Part shown: one piece after another, positions 1,633 through 14,356 of the stretch | Layout of the letters: each line of letters starts with the position of its first letter | Numbering within the stretch: the first letter of the stretch is position 1 | Source of the DNA: Escherichia coli | Lineage (GTDB): Bacteria; Pseudomonadota; Gammaproteobacteria; Enterobacterales; Enterobacteriaceae | Length of the DNA stretch: 64,000 nt | Assembly: GCF_024502345.1 (NCBI RefSeq) | Contig: NZ_JALDNN010000001.1 | Strand: one strand, 5' to 3' | Position numbers and translations under genes: made by a program | Notes under the pieces: model-generated | Databases searched by the model: none | Seen by the model: the letters and a program-made list of their open reading frames with translations, nothing else | Told to the model about the DNA's origin: nothing

Positions 1633-2658
1633 TTAACGCACGGGCGGCGCGTACTGAATACCGCCGTTATTCCAGAGATTATTTTGCCCACGTTTAATTT
1701 TCAGCGGGCTTTCTGAACCTACGTTACGCTCGAAAATTTCCGAGTAGTTACCCACCTGTTTGATGATGTTATAGGCCCATTTATTATCCAGCTTCAGATC
1801 CTTGCCGTAATCGCCTTCTTTACCCAGCAGATGTGCCATATCAGGCGTTGCTGGATTAGCCGCTTTTTCATCGACGTTCTGAGAATTGATGCCCATCTCT
1901 TCAGCATTCAGCATGGCGAAAAGCGTCCAGCGTACAATCGAGAACCATTCATCATCGCCACGACGAACTACCGGCCCAAGCGGTTCTTTAGAGATAACCT
2001 CCGGTAAGACAATCCATTCAGCTGGGTTGCTTAATTTGATGCGCAGGGCATACAGTTGCGACTGATCCGAGGCCAGCGTATCGCAGCGACCAGATTCCAG
2101 TGCCTTCGCTGATTCGTCAGAGCGATCGAAAGTCACCGGTGTGTACTTCATATTGTTTGCCTTGAAATAGTCGGCAACGTTGAGTTCGGTATCAGTACCC
2201 GCCTGAATACAGACGGTAGCGCCATCCAGTTCTTTCGCGCTTTTTAGCCCCGCTTTATCGTGCGTCAGGAAGCCAATGCCGTCGTAATAAGTGACGCCAG
2301 TAAATGCCATTCCCATCCCGGCGTCGCGAGATGAAGTCCAGGTCGTATTACGGGAGAGCAAATCCACTTCCCCTGACTGTAAAGCCGTGAAGCGTTCTTT
2401 TGCTGTGAGTGGGGTATATTTCACTTTCGTGTCGTCACCAAATACAGCAGCGGCAACACCACGACAAACATCAACATCAATACCTGAAAACTTACCGTCT
2501 GCATCGGCATAAGAGAACCCAGGTAATCCATCACTGATCCCGCATTGCACAAAACCTTTTTTCTGAACGGCATCAAGCGTCGCGCCAGCATGCGCCTGAT
2601 TTGCAACGGCAAGCAGCACGCTGGCGGCAGCCAGTGTGGCTATCATCATCTTTTTCAT
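1633..2658 (-). CDS. yhdW: Periplasmic amino-acid binding protein of ABC transporter
   Basis: 341-aa ORF with signal peptide MKKMMIATLAAASVLLAVANQAHA; conserved position. Confidence 0.9.
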   Translation of the reverse strand: MKKMMIATLAAASVLLAVANQAHAGATLDAVQKKGFVQCGISDGLPGFSYADADGKFSGIDVDVCRGVAAAVFGDDTKVKYTPLTAKERFTALQSGEVDLLSRNTTWTSSRDAGMGMAFTGVTYYDGIGFLTHDKAGLKSAKELDGATVCIQAGTDTELNVADYFKANNMKYTPVTFDRSDESAKALESGRCDTLASDQSQLYALRIKLSNPAEWIVLPEVISKEPLGPVVRRGDDEWFSIVRWTLFAMLNAEEMGINSQNVDEKAANPATPDMAHLLGKEGDYGKDLKLDNKWAYNIIKQVGNYSEIFERNVGSESPLKIKRGQNNLWNNGGIQYAPPVR

Positions 2659-3088
2659 AATGCTTCCTGTGAGGCGAAAATTATCGTTATAGGACGTTTG
2701 GGAAACGTCTTTTACCTGTCTGTGGCCATCCTCTTATAAGCAAAAGTAGTGCCAGCTTTTGCGCCCGATTTCGCGTCGCAATAAGCTGAGTGTAGACAGG
2801 AAATAATAAAAACAGCGCCCCGCAATGGTGCGAAAATGAAACATGCGCCACATTTTGGCGCAAAATATTTACGCGTGTTTTACTAAGCAGAATAATGATT
2901 GTTAGCGTGAGTATATTTCTGGTGGGAAGTATGAAAGTTAAATTGATGCGTTATTTCGAAAGCAGCGAAATAACGCGATATAACATGCTAAATCAGCAGA
3001 GAATTAGCCAGCAGAATATAGCAATATTTTATCTTATGTAAAGATACTGTATCGTTAAACAGAGCGCGAAACTCCGCGCCCTGTTCAG

Positions 3089-3310
3089 TTATTTCGACAG
3101 AGCGATGATCCCCATCGTCAGGCCAGCAACAGCTGCTGCCCCGCCAGCAATAGCCCCAGCCGTTTCCCAGTTATCCTGAGTTGTGCCTTTCATACAGGTA
3201 TTGGTGTGAACCAGACGACCCTGATCGTCATAAACCGGAACGCAGGGCGAATCATGAGCACAGCCCGCCAGCAATGCGGTGAGCAATGCCACAGGAATTA
3301 ATCTTTTCAT
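3089..3310 (-). CDS. yhdV: Small lipoprotein
   Basis: 73-aa ORF with lipoprotein signal MKRLIPVALLTALLAGC; conserved position downstream of acrF. Confidence 0.8.
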   Translation of the reverse strand: MKRLIPVALLTALLAGCAHDSPCVPVYDDQGRLVHTNTCMKGTTQDNWETAGAIAGGAAAVAGLTMGIIALSK

Positions 3311-3523
3311 GGTGTTACCTCAGTAATAAACGCTAACGCTTAATAAGTTAACTCTCTTATTAACGAGCTGAATGCCATTTTATCACCGGAGGTTATAAAT
3401 CTTGCGGAATGAATAATGACAAATTATGTGAATTGTAAAAATAGTGAAGGGAGCGGGAACTATAGAAAGTTTTTAAAGAGTGAGAAGAAGAATATCTTAT
3501 TAATTTTTATGGGTTTCACTGAA

Positions 3524-3553
3524 AATAATAAAGGCGCCCGAAAGCGCCTTTAT
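3524..3553 (-). terminator. Rho-independent terminator downstream of acrF
   Basis: GC hairpin aaaggcgcccgaaagcgccttt flanked by A/T runs, 10 bp beyond acrF stop. Confidence 0.6.
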
Positions 3554-3562
3554 GTTTCTGAT

Positions 3563-6500
3563 TTATCCTTTAAAGCAACGGCGGATCACCACAAAGAACA
3601 CCGGTACGAAGAAGATTGCCAGCAACGTTGCAGAGACCATTCCTCCCATTACCCCGATACCCACAGCGTTCTGCGCGCCACTGCCGGCACCGTTACTGAT
3701 AGCCAGCGGTAATACGCCGAGAATAAAGGCGAGAGAGGTCATCAGGATAGGACGCAGACGCATACGTACTGCCATTAGTGTCGCTTCAACAACACCTTTA
3801 CCCTCTTTCTCCATGAGATCTTTAGCGAACTCAACAATCAAAATAGCGTTTTTGGCCGACAAGCCAATTGTCGTTAGCAAGCCCACCATAAAGTAGACGT
3901 CATTTTTTTGATTAAAGAGTGTCGCCGCCAGCAGCACGCCGACAATCCCTAACGGCACGACCAACATAACCGAGACAGGAATTGACCAGCTTTCATAGAG
4001 TGCAGCAAGGCACAGGAAAACAACCACAAAGGAAATTGCTACCAGAGCGGGAGCCTGGTTTCCCGATAAGCGTTCCTGATACGACATACCCGTCCAGTCA
4101 TAACCAATGCCCGCAGGTAATTTTGACGCAAGGTTTTCCATCAACGCCATGGCATCGCCGGAACTGGTTCCTGGCGCGGCTTCCCCCTGAATCTCCATTG
4201 ACGGCAGACCGTTGTAGCGTTCCAGTCGCGGAGAGCCATACACCCAATGTGAAGTGGTAAAGGCAGAGAATGGCACCATTTCGCCGTTGGCGCTGCGGAC
4301 ATAAAGTTTATCGACATCTTCTGGCAGCATACGGAATTTGGCATCCGCCTGAACATACACCTTTTTCACGCGACCACGGTCGATGAAGTCGTTAACGTAA
4401 GTCCCACCCAGCGCCGTTGAAATGGTCTGATTGATGTCAGAAAGTGAAACACCTAATGCCTGCGCCTTTTCCTGGTCAACTTCCAGTTTAAACTGCGCGG
4501 TGTCTTCCAGGCCATTAGGACGCACGCTGACTAAGCTGGCAGGATGTTGCGCCGCCATACCAAGCAACTGGTTACGGGCCTGGGTTAGGGCATCGTGACC
4601 CAGCCCAGCCTGATCAATTAACTCAAAGTCGAAACCCGTTGCCGTGCCCAGTTCAACAATGGCTGGCATATTGAATGGAATGACAAAACCGTCGCGGATC
4701 TTGCCCAACTCCATTTTGGCACGATGGATTACCGCTTCCGCACTGTTTTCGTCACCACTACGCTCTTCCCACGGTTTCAGACTGACGAAGGCCATACCGG
4801 CGTTTTGTGCCTGGCCGCTGAAGCTAAAGCCGTTAACCGTAAAGACACTTTCAACGTTTGCTTTCTCGTTCTTCAGATAGTAATCCGTCACTTGATCCAA
4901 CACTTTTTGCGTCCGCTCTTGCGTCGCGCCAGCGGGTAACTGAATCATGGTCAGAAAGACACCCTGATCCTCTTCAGGTAAGAAGGAAGACGGAAGACGT
5001 AAAAACAACACCACCATTCCTGCAACAATCAGCGCATAGATCAGTAAATATCGTCCTGTGGAACCGAGGATTTTGCCGACGCTGTTGGTGTAGTGGTTAA
5101 CGCTATGATCGAAGGTGGTATTAAACCAGCCGAAGAAACCGCCCTTATTTTCGTGATGCTCAGCAGAGACGGGTTTAAGCAGCGTTGCACATAACGCAGG
5201 GGTAAGAATCAATGCCACCAGAACAGAAAGCGCCATTGCCGAAACGATGGTGATAGAGAACTGGCGATAAATTGCCCCAGTAGAACCGCCGAAGAATGCC
5301 ATCGGAATAAATACCGCTGACAGCACCATCGCGATACCCACCAGTGCGCCCTGAATTTGCGACATTGATTTTTCCGTCGCTTCTTTTGGCGGGAGCTTAT
5401 CCTCCATCATCACGCGCTCGACGTTCTCCACCACCACTATCGCATCATCGACGAGCAGCCCGATGGCAAGCACCATCCCGAACATCGTTAGTGTGTTGAT
5501 GGAGTAACCAAAAGCGGCGAGGATGGCAAACGTCCCTAACAACACCACGGGTACCGCAATGGTGGGGATCAGCGTTGCTCGCATATTCTGCAAGAACAGA
5601 TACATCACCAGGAACACCAGCATAATAGCTTCGAACAGTGTTTTTACCACTTCGTGAATAGAAAGCTGGACGAATGGCGTGGTGTCATAAGGGTAGAGAA
5701 CCTTCATTCCCTGCGGGAAGAATGGCTGTAATTCCGCCAGTTTTGCCTTAATGGCTTTCGCGGTATCGAGAGCATTCGCGCCGGTTGCCAGCTTAATCCC
5801 CAGGCCCGCCGCCGGTTTTCCGTTGATACGAGCGATAACGTTATAGTTTTCACCGCCAAGTTCAACCCGTGCGACATCTTTCAGGCGTACCACCGAGCCG
5901 TCACTGTTTACGCGCAGGGTCACTTTGCCGAATTCTTCCGGATTTTTTAACCGCGTTTGAGCAATAATCGAGGCATTCAACTGTTGCCCTGGTAACGCTG
6001 GCGTTCCGCCCAACTGTCCGGCAGCGATCTGATCGTTCTGTACCTTCAACTGGTTAATCACATCAACCGGTGTCAGTTTATATTTGTTTAGCAGATCGGC
6101 GTCCAGCCAGATACGCATCGCATACTGTGCGCCGAAAAGCTGTACGTCACCGACGCCATTCAGACGGCTAAGCGTATCTTTAACGTTAGAGGCCACATAG
6201 TCCGAGATATCGTCCTGTGTGGTGTCTGGGTTATCAGAGACAAAGCCCGCCACCATCAAATAGCTGCTACTGGACTTTTCAACACTGATCCCCTGCTGCT
6301 GAACCTCCTGCGGCAGCAACGGCGTGGCGAGCTGGAGTTTGTTCTGCACCTGCACTTGCGCGATATCAGGATCGGTCCCGGACTGGAAGGTAAGGGTAAT
6401 TGTCACGCTACCGGCGGAATCGCTGGTGGAGGACATATACATCAGGTTATCGATACCATTCATATTCTGTTCGATAACCTGCGTCACCGTATCCTGCACG

Positions 6501-6667
6501 GTCTGCGCATCAGCACCTGGATAGTTTGCCGAAACAGAAACCGCAGGCGGTGCAATGGTTGGATACTGAGCGACGGGCAATTGTAGGATCGCCAGTGCGC
6601 CCGCCATCATCAGAATAATGGCCAGCACCCATGCAAATATCGGTCGTCGAATAAAAAAGTTTGCCAT
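3563..6667 (-). CDS. acrF: RND multidrug efflux pump inner-membrane transporter AcrF
   Basis: 1034-aa [39 protein letters not shown]... typical AcrB/AcrF family; follows acrE. Confidence 0.95.
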
Positions 6668-6678
6668 GTCAGATTACC

Positions 6679-7836
6679 TTACTTCGATGCAGTATCTGCG
6701 GGGGTATCGGTAGTGGCTTTAACCTGCTCTCCCGGACGCGCTTTTTGCAGGCCGCTGACAATGACTTGATCGCCAGATTTCAGACCTTCGCTAATCAACC
6801 ATTTATCGCCAATCGCCTGACTGGCAACGACAGGGCGCGCTTCCACCTGACTTTTATCGTTAACAATCAGCACGGTTGCATCACCACGCGGTGTGCGGCT
6901 AACGCCTTGTTGCGGGATAAGAATGGCGTCAGGTTGGACGCCTTCATCAATCCGTGCACGCACAAACATACCCGGCAAAAGCGTATGTTGCGGGTTAGGG
7001 AAGACAGCACGTAGGGTTATGGAGCCGGTGCTTTCATCAACGGTCACATCAGAGAATTGCAGCGTACCTTTCAGGGGATAGGTTTGACCGTTTTCCATGA
7101 CCAACTCTACGTTGCTGGTGGCGTTTTCCTTATGCAAATTTCCTTGCTCTACGGATTGCTTCAGCCTCATAAAATCGTTGCTGGATTGGGTCACATCAAC
7201 GTAGATAGGATCGAGCTGCTGGACAGTCGCCAGTTCAGTCGTTTGCCCATTAGTGACAAGAGCGCCTTCGGTCACGGTCGATTTGCCGATACGTCCGCTA
7301 ATTGGCGCAGTCACTTTGGTATAAGCGAGATTGATGCGAGCGCTTTCGACTGTGGCTTTTGCGGCAATCACGGCGGCATCGGCCTGGCGAGCATCAGCAA
7401 TGGCCTGGTCGTACTCCTGCTGGCTGATGTATTTCGTACCCACGAGCGGAACGTAACGTTTTACCGTCAAATGCGCGATGGCGGCGGCGGCTTCACTTTT
7501 CGCCAGTTCGCCTTTCGCGCTGTCATAATTTGCCTGATAGGTCGCGGGATCGATCTGGTACAGGGACTGGCCTGCTTGTACATCGCTGCCTTCAGTGAAA
7601 TTACGATTCAGTACGATCCCGCTAACCTGTGGGCGAACTTCGGCTATACGGTAAGCATTGGTGCGGCCTGGTAATTCAGTCTTAACTTCTAACGGGGCCG
7701 TTTTCACAATATGAACGGTAACCTGCGGTTCACCGACGTGAGCTTTCTCTTCTCCCTTATCGTTACAACCGGCGATTAAAGCCGCGGAGATCAGAATAAA
7801 GGAGGGCAGGAGGAAAAACCTGGCATGTTTCGTCAT
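6679..7836 (-). CDS. acrE: RND efflux pump periplasmic adaptor (membrane fusion protein) AcrE
   Basis: 385-aa ORF with lipoprotein signal MTKHARFFLLPSFILISAALIAGC; 11 bp upstream of acrF. Confidence 0.95.
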   Translation of the reverse strand: MTKHARFFLLPSFILISAALIAGCNDKGEEKAHVGEPQVTVHIVKTAPLEVKTELPGRTNAYRIAEVRPQVSGIVLNRNFTEGSDVQAGQSLYQIDPATYQANYDSAKGELAKSEAAAAIAHLTVKRYVPLVGTKYISQQEYDQAIADARQADAAVIAAKATVESARINLAYTKVTAPISGRIGKSTVTEGALVTNGQTTELATVQQLDPIYVDVTQSSNDFMRLKQSVEQGNLHKENATSNVELVMENGQTYPLKGTLQFSDVTVDESTGSITLRAVFPNPQHTLLPGMFVRARIDEGVQPDAILIPQQGVSRTPRGDATVLIVNDKSQVEARPVVASQAIGDKWLISEGLKSGDQVIVSGLQKARPGEQVKATTDTPADTASK

Positions 7837-8258
7837 TACTATTCCTCAAAAAACCAAAAGCGCGTTATTTACCCAGAAAGGCAACGCGTTAACTCGCAGA
7901 AAGAAAAATACAGTTCGCTATCCTACAAATTATCATTCGTCGATGTAAGGAATAGTTATGAATACTGGCGTCTCAAGGCACATAAACACAAAAAAAGATT
8001 AATATTCTACTGTTTTATTTTGACGCGGGTTGAAAGAGGCAGAATTAAAACCTCGTAAATTGAAATATATATTCATGTGGCGAATGTATTTTAGGTAAAT
8101 AATATATATTATTTATTTGACGATTTATAGCAACTCAATGTTACCCTCTCGTATAAATACACATTAGATGATAGATTAACCTTCGCTATTTTCTCACCCT
8201 GTGTCGAATATATTTATTTCCTGAATAATTAATCATGGCAAAAAGAACCAAAGCCGAA

Positions 8259-8267
8259 GCTCTGAAG
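8259..8267. repeat. Left 9-bp target-site duplication GCTCTGAAG of the IS903-group insertion
   Basis: Identical 9-mer immediately flanks both IS ends (8259-8267 and 9325-9333). Confidence 0.85.
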
Positions 8268-9324
8268 GGCTTTGTTGAATAAATCGAACTTTTGCTGAGT
8301 TGAAGGATCAGATCACGTATCTTCCCGACAACGCAGACCGTTCCGTGGCAAAGCAAAAGTTCAAAATCACCAACTGGCCCACCTACAATAAAGCCCTCAT
8401 CAACCGTGGCTCCATAACTTTCTGGCTGGATGATGAAGCTATTCAGGCCTGGTATGAGTCAGCAACACCTTCTTCACGAGGCAGACCTCAGCGCTATTCT
8501 GACCTTGCCATCACGACTGTGCTGGTCATTAAACGCGTATTCAGGCTGACCCTGCGCGCTGCGCAGGGCTTTATTGATTCCATTTTTTCTCTGATGAACG
8601 TTCCGCTACGCTGCCCGGATTACAGCTGTGTCAGCAGGCGGGCAAAGTCGGTTAATGTCAGTTTCAAAACGCCCACCCGGGGTGAAATCGCACACCTGGT
8701 AATTGATTCCACCGGGCTGAAGGTCTTCGGTGAAGGCGAGTGGAAAGTCAAAAAGCATGGCCAGGAACGCCGCCGTATCTGGCGTAAGCTGCATCTCGCC
8801 GTTGACAGTAAAACACATGAAATCATCTGCGCTGACCTGTCGCTGAACAACGTTACGGACTCAGAGGCCTTCCCCGGGTTAATCCGGCAAACCCACCGGA
8901 AAATCAGGTCAGCCGCCGCCGATGGCGCTTACGATACCCGGCTATGTCACGATGAACTGCGGCGTAAGAAAATCAGCGCGCTTATCCCTCCCCGAAAAGG
9001 TGCGGGTTACTGGCCCGGTGAATATGCAGACCGTAACCGTGCAGTGGCTAATCAGCGAATGACCGGGAGTAATGCGCGGTGGAAATGGACAACAGATTAC
9101 AACCGTCGCTCGATAGCGGAAACGGCGATGTACCGGGTAAAACAGCTGTTCGGGGGTTCACTGACACTGCGTGACTACGATGGTCAGGTTGCAGAGGCTA
9201 TGGCCCTGGTACGAGCGCTGAACAAAATGACGAAAGCAGGTATGCCTGAAAGCGTGCGTATTGCCTGAAAACACAACCCGCTACGGGGGAGACTTACCCG
9301 AAATCTGATTTATTCAACAAAGCC
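8268..9324 (+). mobile_element. IS903-group (IS5 family) insertion sequence, 1057 bp
   Basis: 18-bp terminal inverted repeats GGCTTTGTTGAATAAATC (8268-8285) and reverse complement (9307-9324); single transposase ORF; 9-bp direct target duplication; length and repeat sizes match IS903/IS102-type elements. Confidence 0.85.
8300..9268 (+). CDS. IS903-group DDE transposase
   Basis: 322-aa ORF (TTG start in track) MKDQITYLPDNADRSVAKQKFKITNWPTYNKALINRGSITFWLDDEAIQAWY...; recognised as IS5-family/IS903-group transposase. Confidence 0.85.
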   Translation: MKDQITYLPDNADRSVAKQKFKITNWPTYNKALINRGSITFWLDDEAIQAWYESATPSSRGRPQRYSDLAITTVLVIKRVFRLTLRAAQGFIDSIFSLMNVPLRCPDYSCVSRRAKSVNVSFKTPTRGEIAHLVIDSTGLKVFGEGEWKVKKHGQERRRIWRKLHLAVDSKTHEIICADLSLNNVTDSEAFPGLIRQTHRKIRSAAADGAYDTRLCHDELRRKKISALIPPRKGAGYWPGEYADRNRAVANQRMTGSNARWKWTTDYNRRSIAETAMYRVKQLFGGSLTLRDYDGQVAEAMALVRALNKMTKAGMPESVRIA

Positions 9325-9333
9325 GCTCTGAAG
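9325..9333. repeat. Right 9-bp target-site duplication GCTCTGAAG
   Basis: Direct repeat of 8259-8267 flanking the IS. Confidence 0.85.
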
Positions 9334-9965
9334 ACCCGGCAAGAACTGATTGAAACTGCCATCGCCCAGTTTGCGCAACATGGCGTAAGCAAGACGACGC
9401 TCAACGACATTGCCGATGCCGCTAACGTTACGCGTGGCGCTATCTACTGGCACTTCGAAAACAAGACTCAACTGTTTAATGAGATGTGGTTGCAACAGCC
9501 TTCATTGCGGGAGTTAATCCAGGAACACTTGACGGCTGGATTAGAGCATGACCCGTTTCAACAATTGCGTGAAAAATTGATTGTCGGCTTGCAATATATT
9601 GCCAAAATTCCCCGCCAGCAGGCGTTGCTGAAAATCTTATATCACAAATGTGAATTTAATGATGAGATGCTGGCCGAGGGAGTGATACGCGAAAAGATGG
9701 GCTTTAATCCGCAGACTCTCCGCGAAGTATTGCAGGCGTGTCAGCAACAAGGTTGTGTAGCAAATAACCTCGATTTAGATGTTGTGATGATTATTATTGA
9801 TGGTGCCTTCAGCGGAATTGTTCAAAACTGGTTAATGAATATGGCGGGTTATGATCTTTATAAACAAACCCCCGCTCTGGTCGATAACGTATTAAGAATG
9901 TTCATGCCAGATGAAAACATAACGAAATTAATTCATCAAACGAATGAATTAAGTGTCATGTAAAT

Positions 9966-10145
9966 TCACATTCTGTCCTGAAAATTCAGTTCGTCACAGT
10001 TAACCAGTTTTAGTGGATTAACTGAGTTCATATTACGGCATTTGTCTGTTTCTGTTGTCAGCAGTTCAATCCACTGCATCAGTAAAGTATCAAACAGAAA
10101 AACGAAGACAGCGAAAACGACGAGCCACCAATACTTGCGAATCAT
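9966..10145 (-). CDS. yhdU: Small membrane protein YhdU
   Basis: ORF containing MIRKYWWLVVFAVFVFLFDTLLMQWIELL...; conserved position between acrS and yhdJ. Confidence 0.75.
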   Translation of the reverse strand: MIRKYWWLVVFAVFVFLFDTLLMQWIELLTTETDKCRNMNSVNPLKLVNCDELNFQDRM

Positions 10146-10228
10146 TACCTGAGCCTGTGCATGTTTAACCAAGTCTGGCAGGAAATATACACGAAATGAA
10201 TAATCTGAAAACCAGGCTTACACTTCCT

Positions 10229-11113
10229 TTACTTTGCAATGAGATCGGGGTCAACTTCGCTTAACCGGCTTCGTTTTGACAGGTTGCCGGTCTTTCTTTT
10301 TTTCACTTTCGCCAGTTCTTCCGCAGAGTAATGCGACGCGACATCCAGCCGTCGAAGCCCCATTTTGATGTACTCGCTGTTGATCTCAATACCAATGAAT
10401 TTTCGCCCGCTGGAGACGGCTACGGCACCGGTAGTAAAGCTACCGGCAAACGGGTCGAGAACGATATCGCCTGGGTTGGAAGAGGCGAGAATAATGCGTT
10501 TCAGTAAGGCTTCCGGTTTTTGCGTCGGGTGGTTTTCATATTCATCCATCAAATAACGCACGCGCGGAAAATCCCAGACGTTACCCGGTACTTTTTGATG
10601 ATTGTAAGGCTGTGGAGGATTTTTGCGATAATCGATCAACGCGCGCTGCGATCCGGTTTTGGCTTCTACCAGAATAGCATCACCGTTGAACGTGTAGTTC
10701 TTTGCGTCTTTCACCATCATCAGGATGGGTTCATACATGGAACCGTAGTGTTTTTTCGCCTGCACTCCAGAACTGTCATATGACCAGACGATGCGACTTT
10801 TGATGGTAAAAAGCTTGCGGCACTGGAGATCGATAAAGGGCATGTTTTCCGTACTGTTCATGATGTACATGCTGCCCTGCTTTTTCAGAACGCGGTGGCA
10901 CTCTGCAATCACTTCAAACAGCCAGTCGATAAACAGATCTTCTTTCCAGGCTTCGATCAGACCATCAAAATTTTTACCGATGTTATACGGTGGGTCGGCA
11001 AAGATCAGATCGACGCTTTCAGTAGGTAGCTTTTTAAGTTCGGCAAGGGCATCACCGTGAATAATGGTCTTAGCTTCATTACCAAACCGGGTCGGTTCAC
11101 ATCCTGTTCTCAT
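10229..11113 (-). CDS. yhdJ: Orphan N6-adenine DNA methyltransferase YhdJ
   Basis: 296-aa ORF with methyltransferase motifs FADPPY and DPFAGSFTTG; likely start at MRTGCEP. Confidence 0.9.
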   Translation of the reverse strand: MRTGCEPTRFGNEAKTIIHGDALAELKKLPTESVDLIFADPPYNIGKNFDGLIEAWKEDLFIDWLFEVIAECHRVLKKQGSMYIMNSTENMPFIDLQCRKLFTIKSRIVWSYDSSGVQAKKHYGSMYEPILMMVKDAKNYTFNGDAILVEAKTGSQRALIDYRKNPPQPYNHQKVPGNVWDFPRVRYLMDEYENHPTQKPEALLKRIILASSNPGDIVLDPFAGSFTTGAVAVSSGRKFIGIEINSEYIKMGLRRLDVASHYSAEELAKVKKRKTGNLSKRSRLSEVDPDLIAK

Positions 11114-11140
11114 GGTCACTCCCTTTGTGACACCTATAAA

Positions 11141-11180
11141 AAAGGCGCTTCCCCATGCCGAGTAGCGCCTTTTTAATCAA
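11141..11180 (-). terminator. Bidirectional rho-independent terminator (ancestral fis terminator)
   Basis: aaaaaaggcgcttccccatgccgagtagcgccttttt: GC stem flanked by A6 and T5 runs, immediately downstream of the left copy of the fis 3'-end repeat. Confidence 0.6.
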
Positions 11181-11198
11181 GCATTTAGCTAACCTGAA

Positions 11199-11215
11199 TT
11201 AGTTCATGCCGTATT
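11199..11215. repeat. Left copy of 17-bp direct repeat TTAGTTCATGCCGTATT (duplicate of fis 3' terminus; att-like)
   Basis: Exact 17/17 identity with 13069-13085, which is the true 3' end of fis including its stop codon. Confidence 0.9.
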
Positions 11216-11382
11216 GTAAAATACAGAGTCATTATACGTAATTTATTATCACTCTAGATAATTTGTATTCATCATAAATAATTGATGCGGAAAGAGATAT
11301 TTATTTTTTATTGGCTCGCATTGTATCATCAGTTATCAGTTACTCCCTGCATACAGTTGTCAAAAAGGTTGTCATTAACTCT

Positions 11383-11481
11383 ATGGCCGAAAATAAACTC
11401 TCAGATGTTCAATTGCGTGCGTTAACCCGCAAAGTCATCGAAAAACCTTTTGATGTTGCTGACGGTGGCCAAGTTGGGTGA
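11383..11481 (+). pseudogene. Putative integrase N-terminal (arm-binding domain) remnant, 32 codons then stop
   Basis: MAENKLSDVQLRALTRKVIEKPFDVADGGQVG* resembles the KLTD..R..KP....DGGG N-terminal motif of tyrosine integrases; followed by a hairpin plus T7 run at about 11570-11600. Confidence 0.35.
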
Positions 11482-11610
11482 AAACCTGCTATGCAGCTAC
11501 CGCATAAGGGTAGTGGATTCCGCTGAAATCTTGCCGTTCATCCGATCATAACATCACAACAGTTGTTGCCCATTACCCTGGCGAATGCCGGGGCTTTTTT
11601 TATTTTCAAA

Positions 11611-11923
11611 GTGACGCCTAGGTGTCATTAATTTATAAGGTGTCATGGTAGGTGTCATTGTTCTCAAGCCATAACCCGCAAGGGTTGCGACATTACTAAT
11701 GACACCTATGACACCTATGACAGCATTTTTAAAGAAAATAACGACCACTGTAATAATGTAACAGTGGTCGTTATACTTTATAGAAATGGGTGTCATGGTG
11801 TCACAGGTGTCATTCATTACAGTATCTTGTTTGTATTTTTCTTTAATAATCAGCGTGTTTCCCGCTATGACACCTAATGACACCTTTCCAACATAACGCC
11901 GTCATGGTGACATTAGGTGTCAT
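11611..11923. repeat. Iteron-like array: at least 11 copies of the 9-mer AGGTGTCAT / ATGACACCT in both orientations
   Basis: Forward copies at 11620, 11638, 11650, 11789, 11797 (variant), 11805, 11915; reverse copies at 11699, 11708, 11867, 11877; arranged as two similar modules (three forward then two reverse) about 169 bp apart. Confidence 0.8.
11739..11773. repeat. Perfect hairpin/palindrome with 13-bp arms (TAACGACCACTGT / ACAGTGGTCGTTA) and 9-nt AT-rich loop, central to the 9-mer array
   Basis: Read directly from sequence. Confidence 0.8.
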
Positions 11924-12274
11924 CGCCATCTGCTGCCAAAAAAGTCAAGGTACTTCCGAGGGGGGTACAGCCTGCGGGGGCATTGGTCCCGCGTAATTCG
12001 CGTTGTGCGTGCCCCTACAAAACTCACTTTATGATTACGTCAAGTAAATCAATCATTTATGTGAATCCTATCAAAGCACTGGCACCATACGTGCGCGATT
12101 GCAAAATAAAGCGAACACGTTTTACACACGCTGAATTGTAAAGATGTGTAAATATCGATTACGCCGGATTATGCCGGGTTATTTGCAAGTATTCAGGGTT
12201 ATAAGTTACTGATTTTACATTAAAAAGCTCACATTGTGGCTATTGTGTTCGGTCTGGTTACTGTATATCTTTAA

Positions 12275-12991
12275 GTCATTCCAGGCGATTTAGCTGGCCT
12301 GGCGCTGGCAGGTTATCAGATTTACCGCCATTGGGCTGGTGTGAAGGCTTTCTTTGGCGGAGTGGGTGAAGGCATCAAATCCGGGCTGGAACCGCTTAGC
12401 GACGCTCTGAGCCGCCTTTATGAACGCATGGGGCCGCTGAAACCTGTCATTGATGGTGTGGGTGCTGCGGTTAAGACGGTTTTCAACTGGTTCACGTCAT
12501 TGACCGAGCCGGTCAAGTACAGTGGCGAGGAACTGGATAAGGCCGGTAAAATGGGGATGACGTTCGGTAAGACCCTGGCGGCTGGCATCGAGCTTGTGAC
12601 CGCACCGATCACGTTCCTGATTGATAAGATTCTGTGGGTGTCTGACAACATCGGCAACCTGACCAACAAGGCACTGGAGTTTAAAAACGCCGTGTCTGAT
12701 GTTGCTGGTGGTGCGTGGCAGAAAACCAAAGATTTCTTTACCGCACCATTCCGCGACGATGTACAGCAGCCAGCAGCAACCACTGCCTCTGGTGCTGCCC
12801 TGCCGTCACCTGCACTGGCCAACCGCTCTGGTGGCACTACGGTGCATAGCAACGACCAGTACCACATCAGCGTGAAGGCAGAACCTGGTATGAATGAAGA
12901 TGCATTAGCCCGGAAGGTGATACAGCAACTACGACAGCAACAAGCAGTAAGGCAGCGAAGCATGATGATAGATGGCGCGCAAACACCATAA
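12275..12991 (+). pseudogene. 5'-truncated phage tail tape-measure-like protein, C-terminal fragment
   Basis: Open frame from 12275 (stop at 12272 upstream) encodes ...LAGLALAGYQIYRHWAGVKAFFGGVGEGIKSGLEPLSDALSRLYERMGPLKPVIDGVGAAVKTVFNWF...VHSNDQYHISVKAEPGMNEDALARKVIQQLRQQQ; Gly/Ala-rich segments and C-terminal tail typical of tape-measure proteins; no plausible start or RBS for a full gene. Confidence 0.4.
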
Positions 12992-13068
12992 GGGTTGTCA
13001 GTACGGTTGCAACAAAAAGTAAAGGGACTGAAATAGCCCCTTTAATTTCATGCCGTTACAGCTTGACT

Positions 13069-13085
13069 TTAGTTCATGCCGTATT
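13069..13085. repeat. Right copy of 17-bp direct repeat TTAGTTCATGCCGTATT (native fis 3' end)
   Basis: Encodes the last codons ...YGMN* of fis on the minus strand. Confidence 0.9.
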
Positions 13086-13365
13086 TTTTCAATTTTTTAC
13101 GCAGCGTACCACGGTTGATGCCCATCATCAGCGCAGCACGGGTCTGGTTACCACGGGTGTATTGCATCACCATGTCCAACAGGGGCTGTTCTACTTCAGC
13201 CAGTACCAGCTCATAGAGGTCATTCACATCCTGACCATTCAGTTGAGCAAAATAGTTCTTCAGTGCCTGTTTAACCGAGTCACGCAGGGGTTTTTGGGTT
13301 ACCTGATCCTGAGAGTTAACGGTAGAAACGGTCAGTACGTCAGAATTTACGCGTTGTTCGAACAT
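13069..13365 (-). CDS. fis: Nucleoid-associated protein Fis
   Basis: 98-aa [101 protein letters not shown], recognised as Fis. Confidence 0.97.
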
Positions 13366-13390
13366 AGTTCTGTCAGCTCTTTATTTCTGT

Positions 13391-14356
13391 TTACGCAAAA
13401 TTTTCGAAGTATGCCTCCAACGCCTCCAGCTGTTCGCTGGCATCCTCAATGGCGTTGAATGTGCGCCGAAACTGGTCATTGGGAGCGTGTTCCTGGAGAT
13501 ACCAGGAAACGTGTTTACGTGCAATTCGGTACCCTTTTGCCGGACCATAAAAGTCATGCAGTTCCCGAACGTGCGCGCAAAGCAAGCGCTTAACCTCTGC
13601 CAAAGGCAGCGGGGGCAGCAACTCCCCAGTGTCCAGATAATGCTGGATTTCCCGAAAGATCCAGGGTCTTCCCTGAGCTGCGCGGCCTATCATCAGGGCA
13701 TCCGCCCCTGTATAGTCGAGCACAGCTCTGGCTTTAAGCGGGTCAGTAATGTCGCCATTCGCGATAACCGGAATGGAAACTTTCTGCTTAACTGCCTGAA
13801 TACTGTCGTACTCAGCTTCTCCATTGAACAAACAGGCGCGTGTACGGCCATGAATGGTCAGAGCCTGAATGCCACAGTCTTCAGCCAGTTGGGCAATCTC
13901 TTCGCAGTTACGGTGTTCCGGCGCCCAGCCAGTGCGAATCTTCAGGGTAACAGGAACGTCCACTGCATTGACGACCTCGGTAAGGATCGATTTAACGACT
14001 TCCGGGTACTGCAAGAGGGCTGAACCTGCGAGCTTGCGATTCACTTTTTTAGCCGGGCAACCCATATTGATATCAATAATCTGGGCACCGCTTTCCACGT
14101 TAATACGTGCTGCATCTGCCATTTCTTTCGGATCGCTACCGGCAATTTGCACGGTGCGAATACCGGGTTCATCAATGTGCACCATCCGTAAACGAGATTT
14201 ATCGCTTTCCCAAACTTGTGGGTTAGAAGACATCATCTCGGATACTGTCAATCCGGCTCCCATCTCGTAGCACAACGTCCGAAAAGGTCTGTCTGTAATG
14301 CCAGCCATGGGCGCTGCGATCAGGCGATTTCTGAGCTGATATTGTCCGATGCGCAT
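13391..14356 (-). CDS. dusB: tRNA-dihydrouridine synthase B
   Basis: 321-aa ORF immediately upstream of fis (dusB-fis operon); TIM-barrel flavoprotein sequence. Confidence 0.93.

Follow-up and report, generated by a model that had tools for sequence, protein, structure and literature searches.

The window, a 64-kb stretch of Escherichia coli chromosome, carries the gene order acrE, acrS, yhdU, yhdJ (10229-11113, minus strand), an insert, fis (13069-13365, minus strand), dusB, prmA, panF and accC. K-12 has an 85-bp gap between fis and yhdJ. Both ends of the insert carry the same 17 bp, TTAGTTCATGCCGTATT, as an exact direct repeat. Its reverse complement, AATACGGCATGAACTAA, makes up the final 17 nt of fis, and the empty site of K-12 departs from the window exactly at this block (Table 1). 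A sequence-only reading had placed the open frame considered below inside a mobile-element insert, and the repeat found on both sides bears this out. An element-borne GC-rich hairpin between the convergent stop codons of the frame and of fis probably takes over as the fis terminator in the occupied site, since the native one now lies beyond the insert, at about 11140-11180.

Table 1. Features of the insert between yhdJ and fis. Positions are those of the window; L002 is the intact locus of strain JML285; TMP, tape-measure protein.
Feature	Position	Strand	Remarks
Left blastn block	11000-11469		L002 (JML285) 3798-4267
Middle blastn block	11466-12292		L002 (JML285) 8001-8827, 99.76% identity
Right blastn block	12291-13400		L002 (JML285) 12738-13847
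attL identity block TTAGTTCATGCCGTATT	11199-11215		Direct repeat with 13069-13085; K-12 divergence point; same block listed for E. coli 9/10.fis PICIs in the part of the E. coli list covered here (PMC10111431)
Integrase 5' stub	11383-11469	+	First 29 codons of a 411-aa tyrosine integrase; int start at L002 4181
Deletion junction 1	11466-11469		TGGC microhomology in both parental sides; 3,737 bp lost
hyp74 3' end (74-aa gene after the primase gene)	11466-11551	+	Last 27 codons; whole gene at L002 7862-8086; out of frame with the integrase stub
Origin-like region	11619-11926		11 iteron cores GGTGTCA/TGACACC in both orientations; self-inverted blast match; putative replication function
Leader/noncoding DNA preceding the capsid gene in the intact element	11927-12290	+	Ribosome-binding site and start codon of the capsid gene lost
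Open frame as reported	12275-12991	+	216-aa annotated product from GTG 12341
Deletion junction 2	12291-12292		TA microhomology; 3,912 bp lost
TMP gene 3' fragment	12291-12991	+	nt 1589-2289, residues 530-762 of 762; native stop codon kept
Hairpin with T-runs, GC-rich	13016-13048		Between convergent TMP and fis stops; terminator-like site on the minus strand (13044-13020) plus inverted repeat
attR identity block	13069-13085		Last 17 nt of functional fis (13069-13365, minus strand)

The open frame follows directly on a TAA codon (12272-12274), runs for 238 sense codons from 12275 onward and ends at a second TAA (12989-12991); from the local base composition, the probability of such a stop-free run is about 3e-5. 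The first in-frame start is the GTG at which public annotation begins a "hypothetical protein", and a Shine-Dalgarno-like sequence is absent upstream of every candidate start in the frame. The sequence-only reading, according to which the frame begins right after a stop codon and has no credible start or ribosome-binding site, holds on both points, while its description of the product as Gly/Ala-rich applies only modestly (A 12.2% and G 10.5%, Ala+Gly 22.7% combined). A sigma-70 promoter scan found none near the frame, and a helper-activated promoter would escape such a scan; the TGT-N12-ACA dyad of P2/P4-type late promoters has no match upstream of the frame and a sole match inside the coding region.

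When compared with 50,697 phage records by tblastn, the frame matches 278, P2-like Peduovirus among them. The best match is the C-terminus of the TMP of Escherichia phage vB_EcoM-ep3 (Jilinvirus), with 53.8% identity over residues 6-238 (E = 2e-60), and it falls on a gene annotated "tail length tape measure protein". The PHROG matches are phrog_5690 (1.8e-26), phrog_28 (tail length tape measure, 6.9e-17) and seven more tail/TMP families. The resemblance of the C-terminal tail to those of phage TMPs, first noticed from the sequence alone, is borne out by tblastn and by phrog_28; as for the P2 gpT-like and lambda gpH-like families named as candidates, the homologues are phage TMPs, but the nearest belong to Jilinvirus ep3-like myoviruses and not to either of those families specifically. 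Among the TMPs of ep3-like myoviruses (vB_EcoM-ep3, ECOO78, ECO1230-10 and Pseudomonas PPpW-3), that of ep3 is matched by the fragment over its C-terminal 233 residues at 54%. A homologue search that used the fragment as query yielded no more than 8 clusters, without the full-length TMPs, and is uninformative on family size. Pfam gives the fragment a sole match, a sub-threshold TMP repeat (10.9 bits against a cut-off of 15), and NCBIfam gives none, because the signature domains sit in the deleted part.

That deleted part is found in other strains. At this locus, JML285, EC130 and some 39 further complete E. coli genomes have an intact 2,289-nt TMP gene; among complete RefSeq E. coli genomes, 65 carry the gene, and in 39 the match spans 80% or more of its length. 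To the gene of JML285 the fragment is 99.7% identical (2 differences in 701 nt), covering 30.6% of it, and the encoded residues differ at two positions, V530L at the junction and M700L; the frame is the 3' end of a longer gene, as had been proposed from the sequence alone. Its first 16 nt (12275-12290) are upstream leader/intergenic DNA that is in frame by chance. The 762-aa parent protein matches phrog_28 at 3.7e-103 over residues 22-759, contains TIGR01760 (tape_meas_TP901) over residues 111-467 and PF10145 (PhageMin_Tail) over residues 156-359, and is collinear from end to end with the 785-aa TMP of ep3 (YP_009100040) at 42% identity. On these grounds it appears to be a genuine full-length TMP, to which, as to the fragment, the closest phage TMPs, those of ep3-like myoviruses, reach only 42-54% identity. 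The fragment begins at residue 530 of 762 without a ribosome-binding site and is devoid of both signature domains, and other tail genes are absent from both the remnant and the parent; it would be classed as TMP-derived, but not as a TMP.

The intact element of JML285 (L002) and EC130 (L001) occupies the same site between yhdJ and fis and measures 9,536 bp from repeat to repeat. Its genes are, in order, int (411 aa, with Arm-DNA-bind_3 and Phage_integrase domains), alpA (AlpA, 59 aa), hyp93, the gene of a VapE primase/helicase (562 aa), hyp74, about 770 bp of noncoding DNA, hyp294, hyp104, hyp54, hyp105, hyp69, hyp68 and the TMP gene, which ends 77 bp from the fis stop codon. They form integration, replication and late modules, the last consisting of a capsid gene, five small ORFs and, as the last gene, that of the TMP. 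The capsid gene is hyp294 (294 aa), whose product is predicted to be an HK97-fold major-capsid homologue by an AlphaFold2 model built from 20 homologues (mean pLDDT 66.8, pTM 0.66), some of which are fused to a Peptidase_S78 prohead protease; it has no tblastn match in the phage collection and was identified only through structure prediction. Neither it nor the eight small ORFs of the parent match a PHROG family, and the small ORFs show no similarity to phage ep3 by tblastn, which leaves a tail-chaperone identity of the ORFs before the TMP gene unsupported. In phages, TMP genes sit between tail chaperone and baseplate/hub genes, whereas the TMP gene of the satellite is terminal and accompanied by no other recognisable tail gene. 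One same-site variant carries an extra small-terminase gene (phrog_57, 4.4e-26). In E. coli and Salmonella, circular plasmids of about 9 kb that lack int carry a near-identical late module (88-100% protein identity), and the module also occurs on IMG/VR contigs of about 9.5 kb; a similar Proteus plasmid has a TMP at 94.6% identity.

Three blastn blocks at 98.5-99.8% identity align the window with the intact element (Table 1), and the synteny comparison suggested along with the sequence-only reading shows the same-locus elements of JML285 and EC130 to be collinear with the window. Internal deletions had been expected, and they are confirmed, although "several" comes down to exactly two. The deletion at junction 1 took int from codon 30, alpA, hyp93, the VapE primase/helicase gene and most of hyp74. 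The deletion at junction 2 begins 25 nt before the hyp294 start codon, reaches the second base of TMP codon 530 and took the capsid gene, the five small ORFs and TMP codons 1-529; the GGAG-N8-ATG of the capsid gene lies 12-25 nt past this junction in the parent. The length bookkeeping closes (9,536 - 3,737 - 3,912 = 1,887 bp, which is window 11199-13085), and no other pieces of the element are found elsewhere in the 64-kb window. With 80% of the element lost, the remnant keeps both att blocks, the origin-like region and the TMP tail. In the origin-like region, the 11 copies of the iteron core lie within 11621-11922, compared with 8 in the other roughly 63.7 kb of the window, and surround an AT-rich imperfect palindrome of about 125 bp (11698-11814). 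The sole Rfam matches of the remnant, hairpin models of plant miRNAs on this palindrome, fall below threshold and were rejected as artefacts of the inverted iterons.

Tape-measure genes are normally prophage genes, and the best phage matches of the frame are complete myoviruses; both points would suit an origin of the remnant from a complete tailed prophage formerly resident at the fis site. However, every intact same-site relative is an element of about 9.5 kb with int, alpA and primase genes in which no portal, large terminase, tube, sheath, baseplate or lysis genes were found, the window maps onto this small element without a gap, and a survey of 3,565 fis islands records no prophage at fis (PMC10111431), so that a prophage ancestry is exceedingly unlikely. 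The parent is a phage satellite and not a prophage, because of its int-alpA-primase arrangement, the iteron field after the primase gene and the absence of a virion/lysis gene set. Of the "prophage or satellite" origin offered by the sequence-only reading, the satellite, here a fis PICI, is retained and the prophage dropped.

The "fis" genomic islands were described by Tommasini, Mageeney and Williams (2023, PMC10111431), who classed all 3,565 as Gram-negative PICIs. The consensus identity block of these elements at the fis terminus is TACGGCATGAACTAA, and their plan has four zones: integration, Bro, replication (with the ori downstream of pri) and late, the last holding captured helper late genes, most often the capsid gene (PMC10111431). 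A Klebsiella fis PICI is cited there as excising and replicating after mitomycin C (PMC10111431). The integration, replication and late gene zones of the parent match this scheme (PMC10111431). Supplementary File 1 of the same paper, in the part covered here, lists Eco7667.9.fis (CP023899.1/1959329-1968807), Eco8587.9.fis (CP029108.1) and Eco8902.9.fis (CP029369.1) with the block aatacggcatgaactaa, and these three islands are the same genomes and coordinates as TMP-gene matches in complete genomes; to the last gene of such catalogued 9.5-kb fis PICIs the TMP fragment is 99.6-99.7% identical. The islands entered in that part of the E. coli list have lengths of 9-11 or 15 kb, with none of 2 kb or 6 kb, and a tape-measure gene appears nowhere in the main text (PMC10111431).

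With the fis PICIs the window copy shares attB and the block AATACGGCATGAACTAA, the yhdJ and fis flanks, an int stub, the origin and the attR arm; it differs from them in having neither int, alpA, primase gene and capsid gene nor TMP residues 1-529, and is no longer autonomous. Set against the features that define the family, the remnant is integrated at the fis 3' end with the flanking TACGGCATGAACTAA block. Of the terminal, inward-reading tyrosine integrase and AlpA, both of which are present in the intact relatives, 29 integrase codons are left and alpA is deleted. The primase gene is also deleted, and an iteron cluster, the putative origin, stands at the position expected downstream of it, while the late zone with its homologues of phage late genes is represented by the TMP 3' fragment. 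The window copy is, as judged from its gene content, a derivative of a fis PICI member and not a functional member.

Other known systems resemble the parent in part. Compared with capsid-gene-carrying PICIs (EcCICFT073-type GN-PICIs and the cf-PICI EcCI2, PDB 9gyi) and with SaPIbov5 Ccm, it is without the portal, protease, head-tail connector and large terminase of the cf-PICIs and has a TMP gene instead; this comparison concerns the parent, none of whose capsid-type genes survive in the window. Satellite phage P4 is likewise small, with an integrase of a related clade (PMC10111431) and a primase-helicase replicon, and the int-less plasmids of about 9 kb with the same late module recall the dual plasmid/integrated lifestyle of P4. 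In contrast to P4, nothing like sid, psu or delta is found among the scanned parent ORFs (no PHROG match), and the iterons differ. From cryptic mobile-element remnants in E. coli there is no real difference: these show the same decay by short-microhomology deletion, with att sites and gene stubs left behind. A literature search for a satellite with a tape-measure gene returned nothing on this element and surfaced defences that act by tail-assembly interference; a preprint on mini HK97 viruses concerns another family and was set aside.

By exact-protein look-up, the 216-aa product (P0105) is found, 100% identical, on 25 E. coli contigs in public collections, and eight of these contexts (L011-L018), from NCBI, ENA and Logan assemblies, were examined. 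The 76-nt sequence of junction 2 is identical in all eight independent contigs. Five of them (L012, L014, L016, L017 and L018) have junction 2 only and retain alpA, hyp93, the VapE gene and hyp74, together with int in the first four, the contig of L018 beginning downstream of int. In the remaining three (L011, L013 and L015) both junctions are present, and positions 11000-13400 of the window are matched at 100% identity. Because junction 1 is never seen without junction 2, whereas junction 2 also occurs alone, the 3,912-bp deletion that truncated the TMP gene preceded the 3,737-bp deletion. The one-deletion form L012 shows 0 mismatches in 3.9 kb to the chromosomal flank of the window, and the second deletion plausibly happened within this lineage. 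Megablast with the remnant and with a junction-spanning probe detects neither junction in the 5,426 complete RefSeq E. coli genomes; the junction copies were found only via the exact-protein look-up. Apart from this absence nothing specific points to a truncation created during assembly, and with the same junctions in independent NCBI, ENA and Logan assemblies, such an artefact is vanishingly unlikely.

Over 10863-13480, L013 and L015 show no differences from the window, whereas the flanking yhdJ/acrS and dusB-panF DNA differs at 114 positions in L013 and at 27 in L015, and the identical remnant is found in strains whose flanking core genes are 1-2.8% divergent. Since the same remnant, which has no integrase, lies in diverged backgrounds, it has moved between backgrounds. 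The SNP-free tract reaches 336 bp past attL and about 395 bp past attR, and homologous recombination of the region is the simplest explanation for its presence in different backgrounds, because the identity extends beyond both att blocks. A 100% identical remnant amid divergent flanks is unlike a purely vertical inert relic and in that respect sits uneasily with a pseudogene; homologous recombination would explain it. The remnant could instead be a mini-element that is excised, replicated and moved in trans by a co-resident fis PICI, with the TMP stub as mere cargo. The retention of both att blocks with their adjacent arms and of the origin would agree with this, as would the identity of 10863-13480 despite differing flanks and the existence of PICI/PICI tandems at fis (L014; PMC10111431). 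Yet homologous recombination accounts at least equally well for the SNP-free tract beyond attL and attR, copies that are circular or lie at another site were not seen, and 1.9 kb is far below any packaging unit; we consider transfer of this kind most unlikely.

The truncation is evolutionarily recent, and because only 2 nt differ from the parent, the intact frame carries no information on selection. The frame is open to its native stop and is annotated by gene callers, an observation that would speak against a pseudogene, but the event is too recent for decay to have set in, so it is uninformative. The DNA retained upstream is the late-operon leader, which could still carry a promoter; this too would weigh against a pseudogene.

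These features bear on a functional reading, in which the truncated TMP, a 216-aa C-terminal domain, is expressed from the late leader and acts as a decoy, dominant-negative against the tail/baseplate assembly of a related phage or helper. The frame, which lies directly behind that leader, is intact and identical in at least 23 contigs, in one-deletion and two-deletion forms alike, and the C-terminal third of the TMP (from about nt 1432) is the part that is conserved, at 88-94% nt identity, among otherwise divergent satellite TMP alleles. Tail-assembly interference by PICIs and prophages is, moreover, an existing defence principle, with Tai and Tab as precedents (PMC11364771, PMC10884400). Against it, no start has a Shine-Dalgarno sequence, one junction common to all copies points to a single accident and not to a recurrent design, and the second deletion, which wrecked the rest of the element, fits decay; in addition, the sequence identity is too high for conservation to imply selection. 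PADLOC defence models match neither the fragment nor the parent TMP nor seven other parent proteins. We regard a decoy as very unlikely. A slight chance is left that either the stub is expressed on infection by a related phage and poisons tail/baseplate assembly, or the att-ori-att remnant is moved in trans by intact fis PICIs; if true, either would help explain the 100% identical, integrase-less remnant in backgrounds that are 1-2.8% divergent.

The frame is, in our assessment, very probably a pseudogene, the 3' 30.6% of the TMP gene of a fis PICI of about 9.5 kb that was stranded by deletion. On this reading the satellite integrated by site-specific recombination into the fis 3' end; a 3,912-bp deletion between TA microhomologies first fused the capsid-gene leader to TMP codon 530, and a 3,737-bp deletion between TGGC microhomologies then removed int (after codon 29) through the primase gene, to leave a 1,887-bp remnant with both att blocks, the origin and the TMP tail. 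Because the promoter-proximal genes, a start and ribosome-binding site of its own and both TMP signature domains are lost, the fragment most likely makes no functional product and is presumably not expressed. The remnant is unable to excise alone, since int and alpA are gone, or to replicate alone, since the primase gene is gone. If the intact parent behaves like other Gram-negative PICIs, its excision would be induced by a helper phage through Int and AlpA, and the VapE primase would fire the iteron origin. Its late zone may then supply the capsid homologue, with a small terminase in some cases, and the TMP, helper-like in length, might be built into helper tails or compete for them.

The fragment is an ordinary relic in a degraded member of a known, catalogued family, the fis PICIs. 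For annotation, the public 216-aa "hypothetical protein" is better labelled a TMP pseudogene in a decayed fis PICI, and the remnant as a whole illustrates cleanly how a satellite decays in two steps through microhomology deletions. In E. coli, Salmonella and Proteus, a capsid homologue together with a full-length TMP gene is carried by some satellites and by plasmids of about 9 kb, a combination for which no discussion was found in the searchable literature. The only recognisable tail gene kept by this family of satellites and int-less plasmids is that of a full-length, phage-sized TMP. The parent family hints that satellites may bring their own tail-length or DNA-ejection components.

The integrase-less and doubly deleted fis PICI remnant lies in a stretch (10863-13480) that is 100% identical to the corresponding region in two other E. 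coli assemblies, L013 and L015. Against the same window, the flanking core genes (acrS-yhdJ and dusB-panF) differ at 114 positions in L013 and at 27 positions in L015. A fully identical remnant within differing core-gene flanks implies that the region has moved horizontally, with homologous recombination and mobilisation in trans as the two candidate routes.

The remnant contains an origin-like iteron field, in which a 9-bp indel at 11699-11707, corresponding to one iteron unit (ATGACACCT), separates three of the one-deletion forms (L012, L014 and L017) from the window. The only Rfam matches to this field are sub-threshold plant-miRNA hairpins, which were rejected as artefacts of the palindrome. 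At the fis end of the remnant, the hairpin between the gene fragment for the tail tape-measure protein (TMP) and fis appears to be a replacement terminator that the satellite brought for fis, the native terminator of which (~11140-11180) now lies beyond the insert, towards yhdJ.

Features of the window and probable plasmid-form or IMG/VR relatives of the fis PICI
Feature	Position or record	Description
Insertion sequence	8268-9324	1,057 bp; 9-bp target duplication
Transposase ORF	8300-9268	322 aa; NCBIfam NF033579 (IS5-family transposase), 6e-107
Origin-like iteron field	11619-11926	11 copies of GGTGTCA/TGACACC flanking an AT-rich imperfect palindrome of ~125 bp
Hairpin	13016-13048	T-runs on both strands; TMP and fis stop codons converge on it from either side
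Probable plasmid-form relatives	L005; L006; L007; L008	pM121-3; pSCU-121-2; Salmonella pR17.0904_9.3k; Proteus pW47-1
Further probable relatives, IMG/VR	L019; L020	9.45 kb; 9.6 kb

Other arrangements are found at the fis site. In L014 (positions 4651-8651), the one-deletion element is directly followed by a second island, which opens with an integrase of its own (407 aa) together with a DUF6387 gene and AlpA. The two islands form a PICI/PICI tandem, and such tandems at fis have been described (PMC10111431). In E. coli 126096 (L031, positions 2385-11870), the site is occupied by a variant fis PICI that possesses an extra gene for a 159-aa small terminase (phrog_57, 4.4e-26). Its TMP gene is matched by megablast to the allele of the intact element in JML285 over only about the last third (from ~nt 1432, 88.8% identity), which shows the gene to be mosaic, with a conserved C-terminal module.

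The capsid-to-TMP late module is also found on circular, 'non-mobilizable' plasmids of ~9 kb that lack integrase and alpA and in which the module is paired with a larger toprim and VapE/DUF5906 primase. In L006 and L007, the proteins shared with the fis PICI are 88-100% identical to their counterparts there, except the small h54 (40% in L007); L005 and L008, compared with it through TMP only, show 94.5-94.6% identity. These plasmids seem to be relatives of the fis PICI in plasmid form, and no discussion of them was found in the searchable literature. In Salmonella GCA_018535225.1 (L009 and L010, positions 4859-13576), a related small element is situated within a prophage head-gene cluster, with a Peptidase_S78 gene on one side and a Phage_capsid fragment on the other, and contains int, small ORFs, an AAA_25 helicase and a prohead-protease::capsid fusion with 51% identity to hyp294, the capsid homologue of the parent element. 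Its location among prophage head genes matches the 'helper-embedded PICI' configuration described previously (PMC10111431).

Outside the remnant, acrS/envR is broken by an insertion sequence ~25-33 nt past its start codon, with positions 4434-4442 of the K-12 locus (L003) found on either side. Its size and 9-bp duplication fit the IS903 group. The insertion sequence is absent from L011, L013 and L015, all of which carry the same PICI remnant as the window. Because AcrS represses acrEF, the interruption of acrS/envR may alter efflux regulation.
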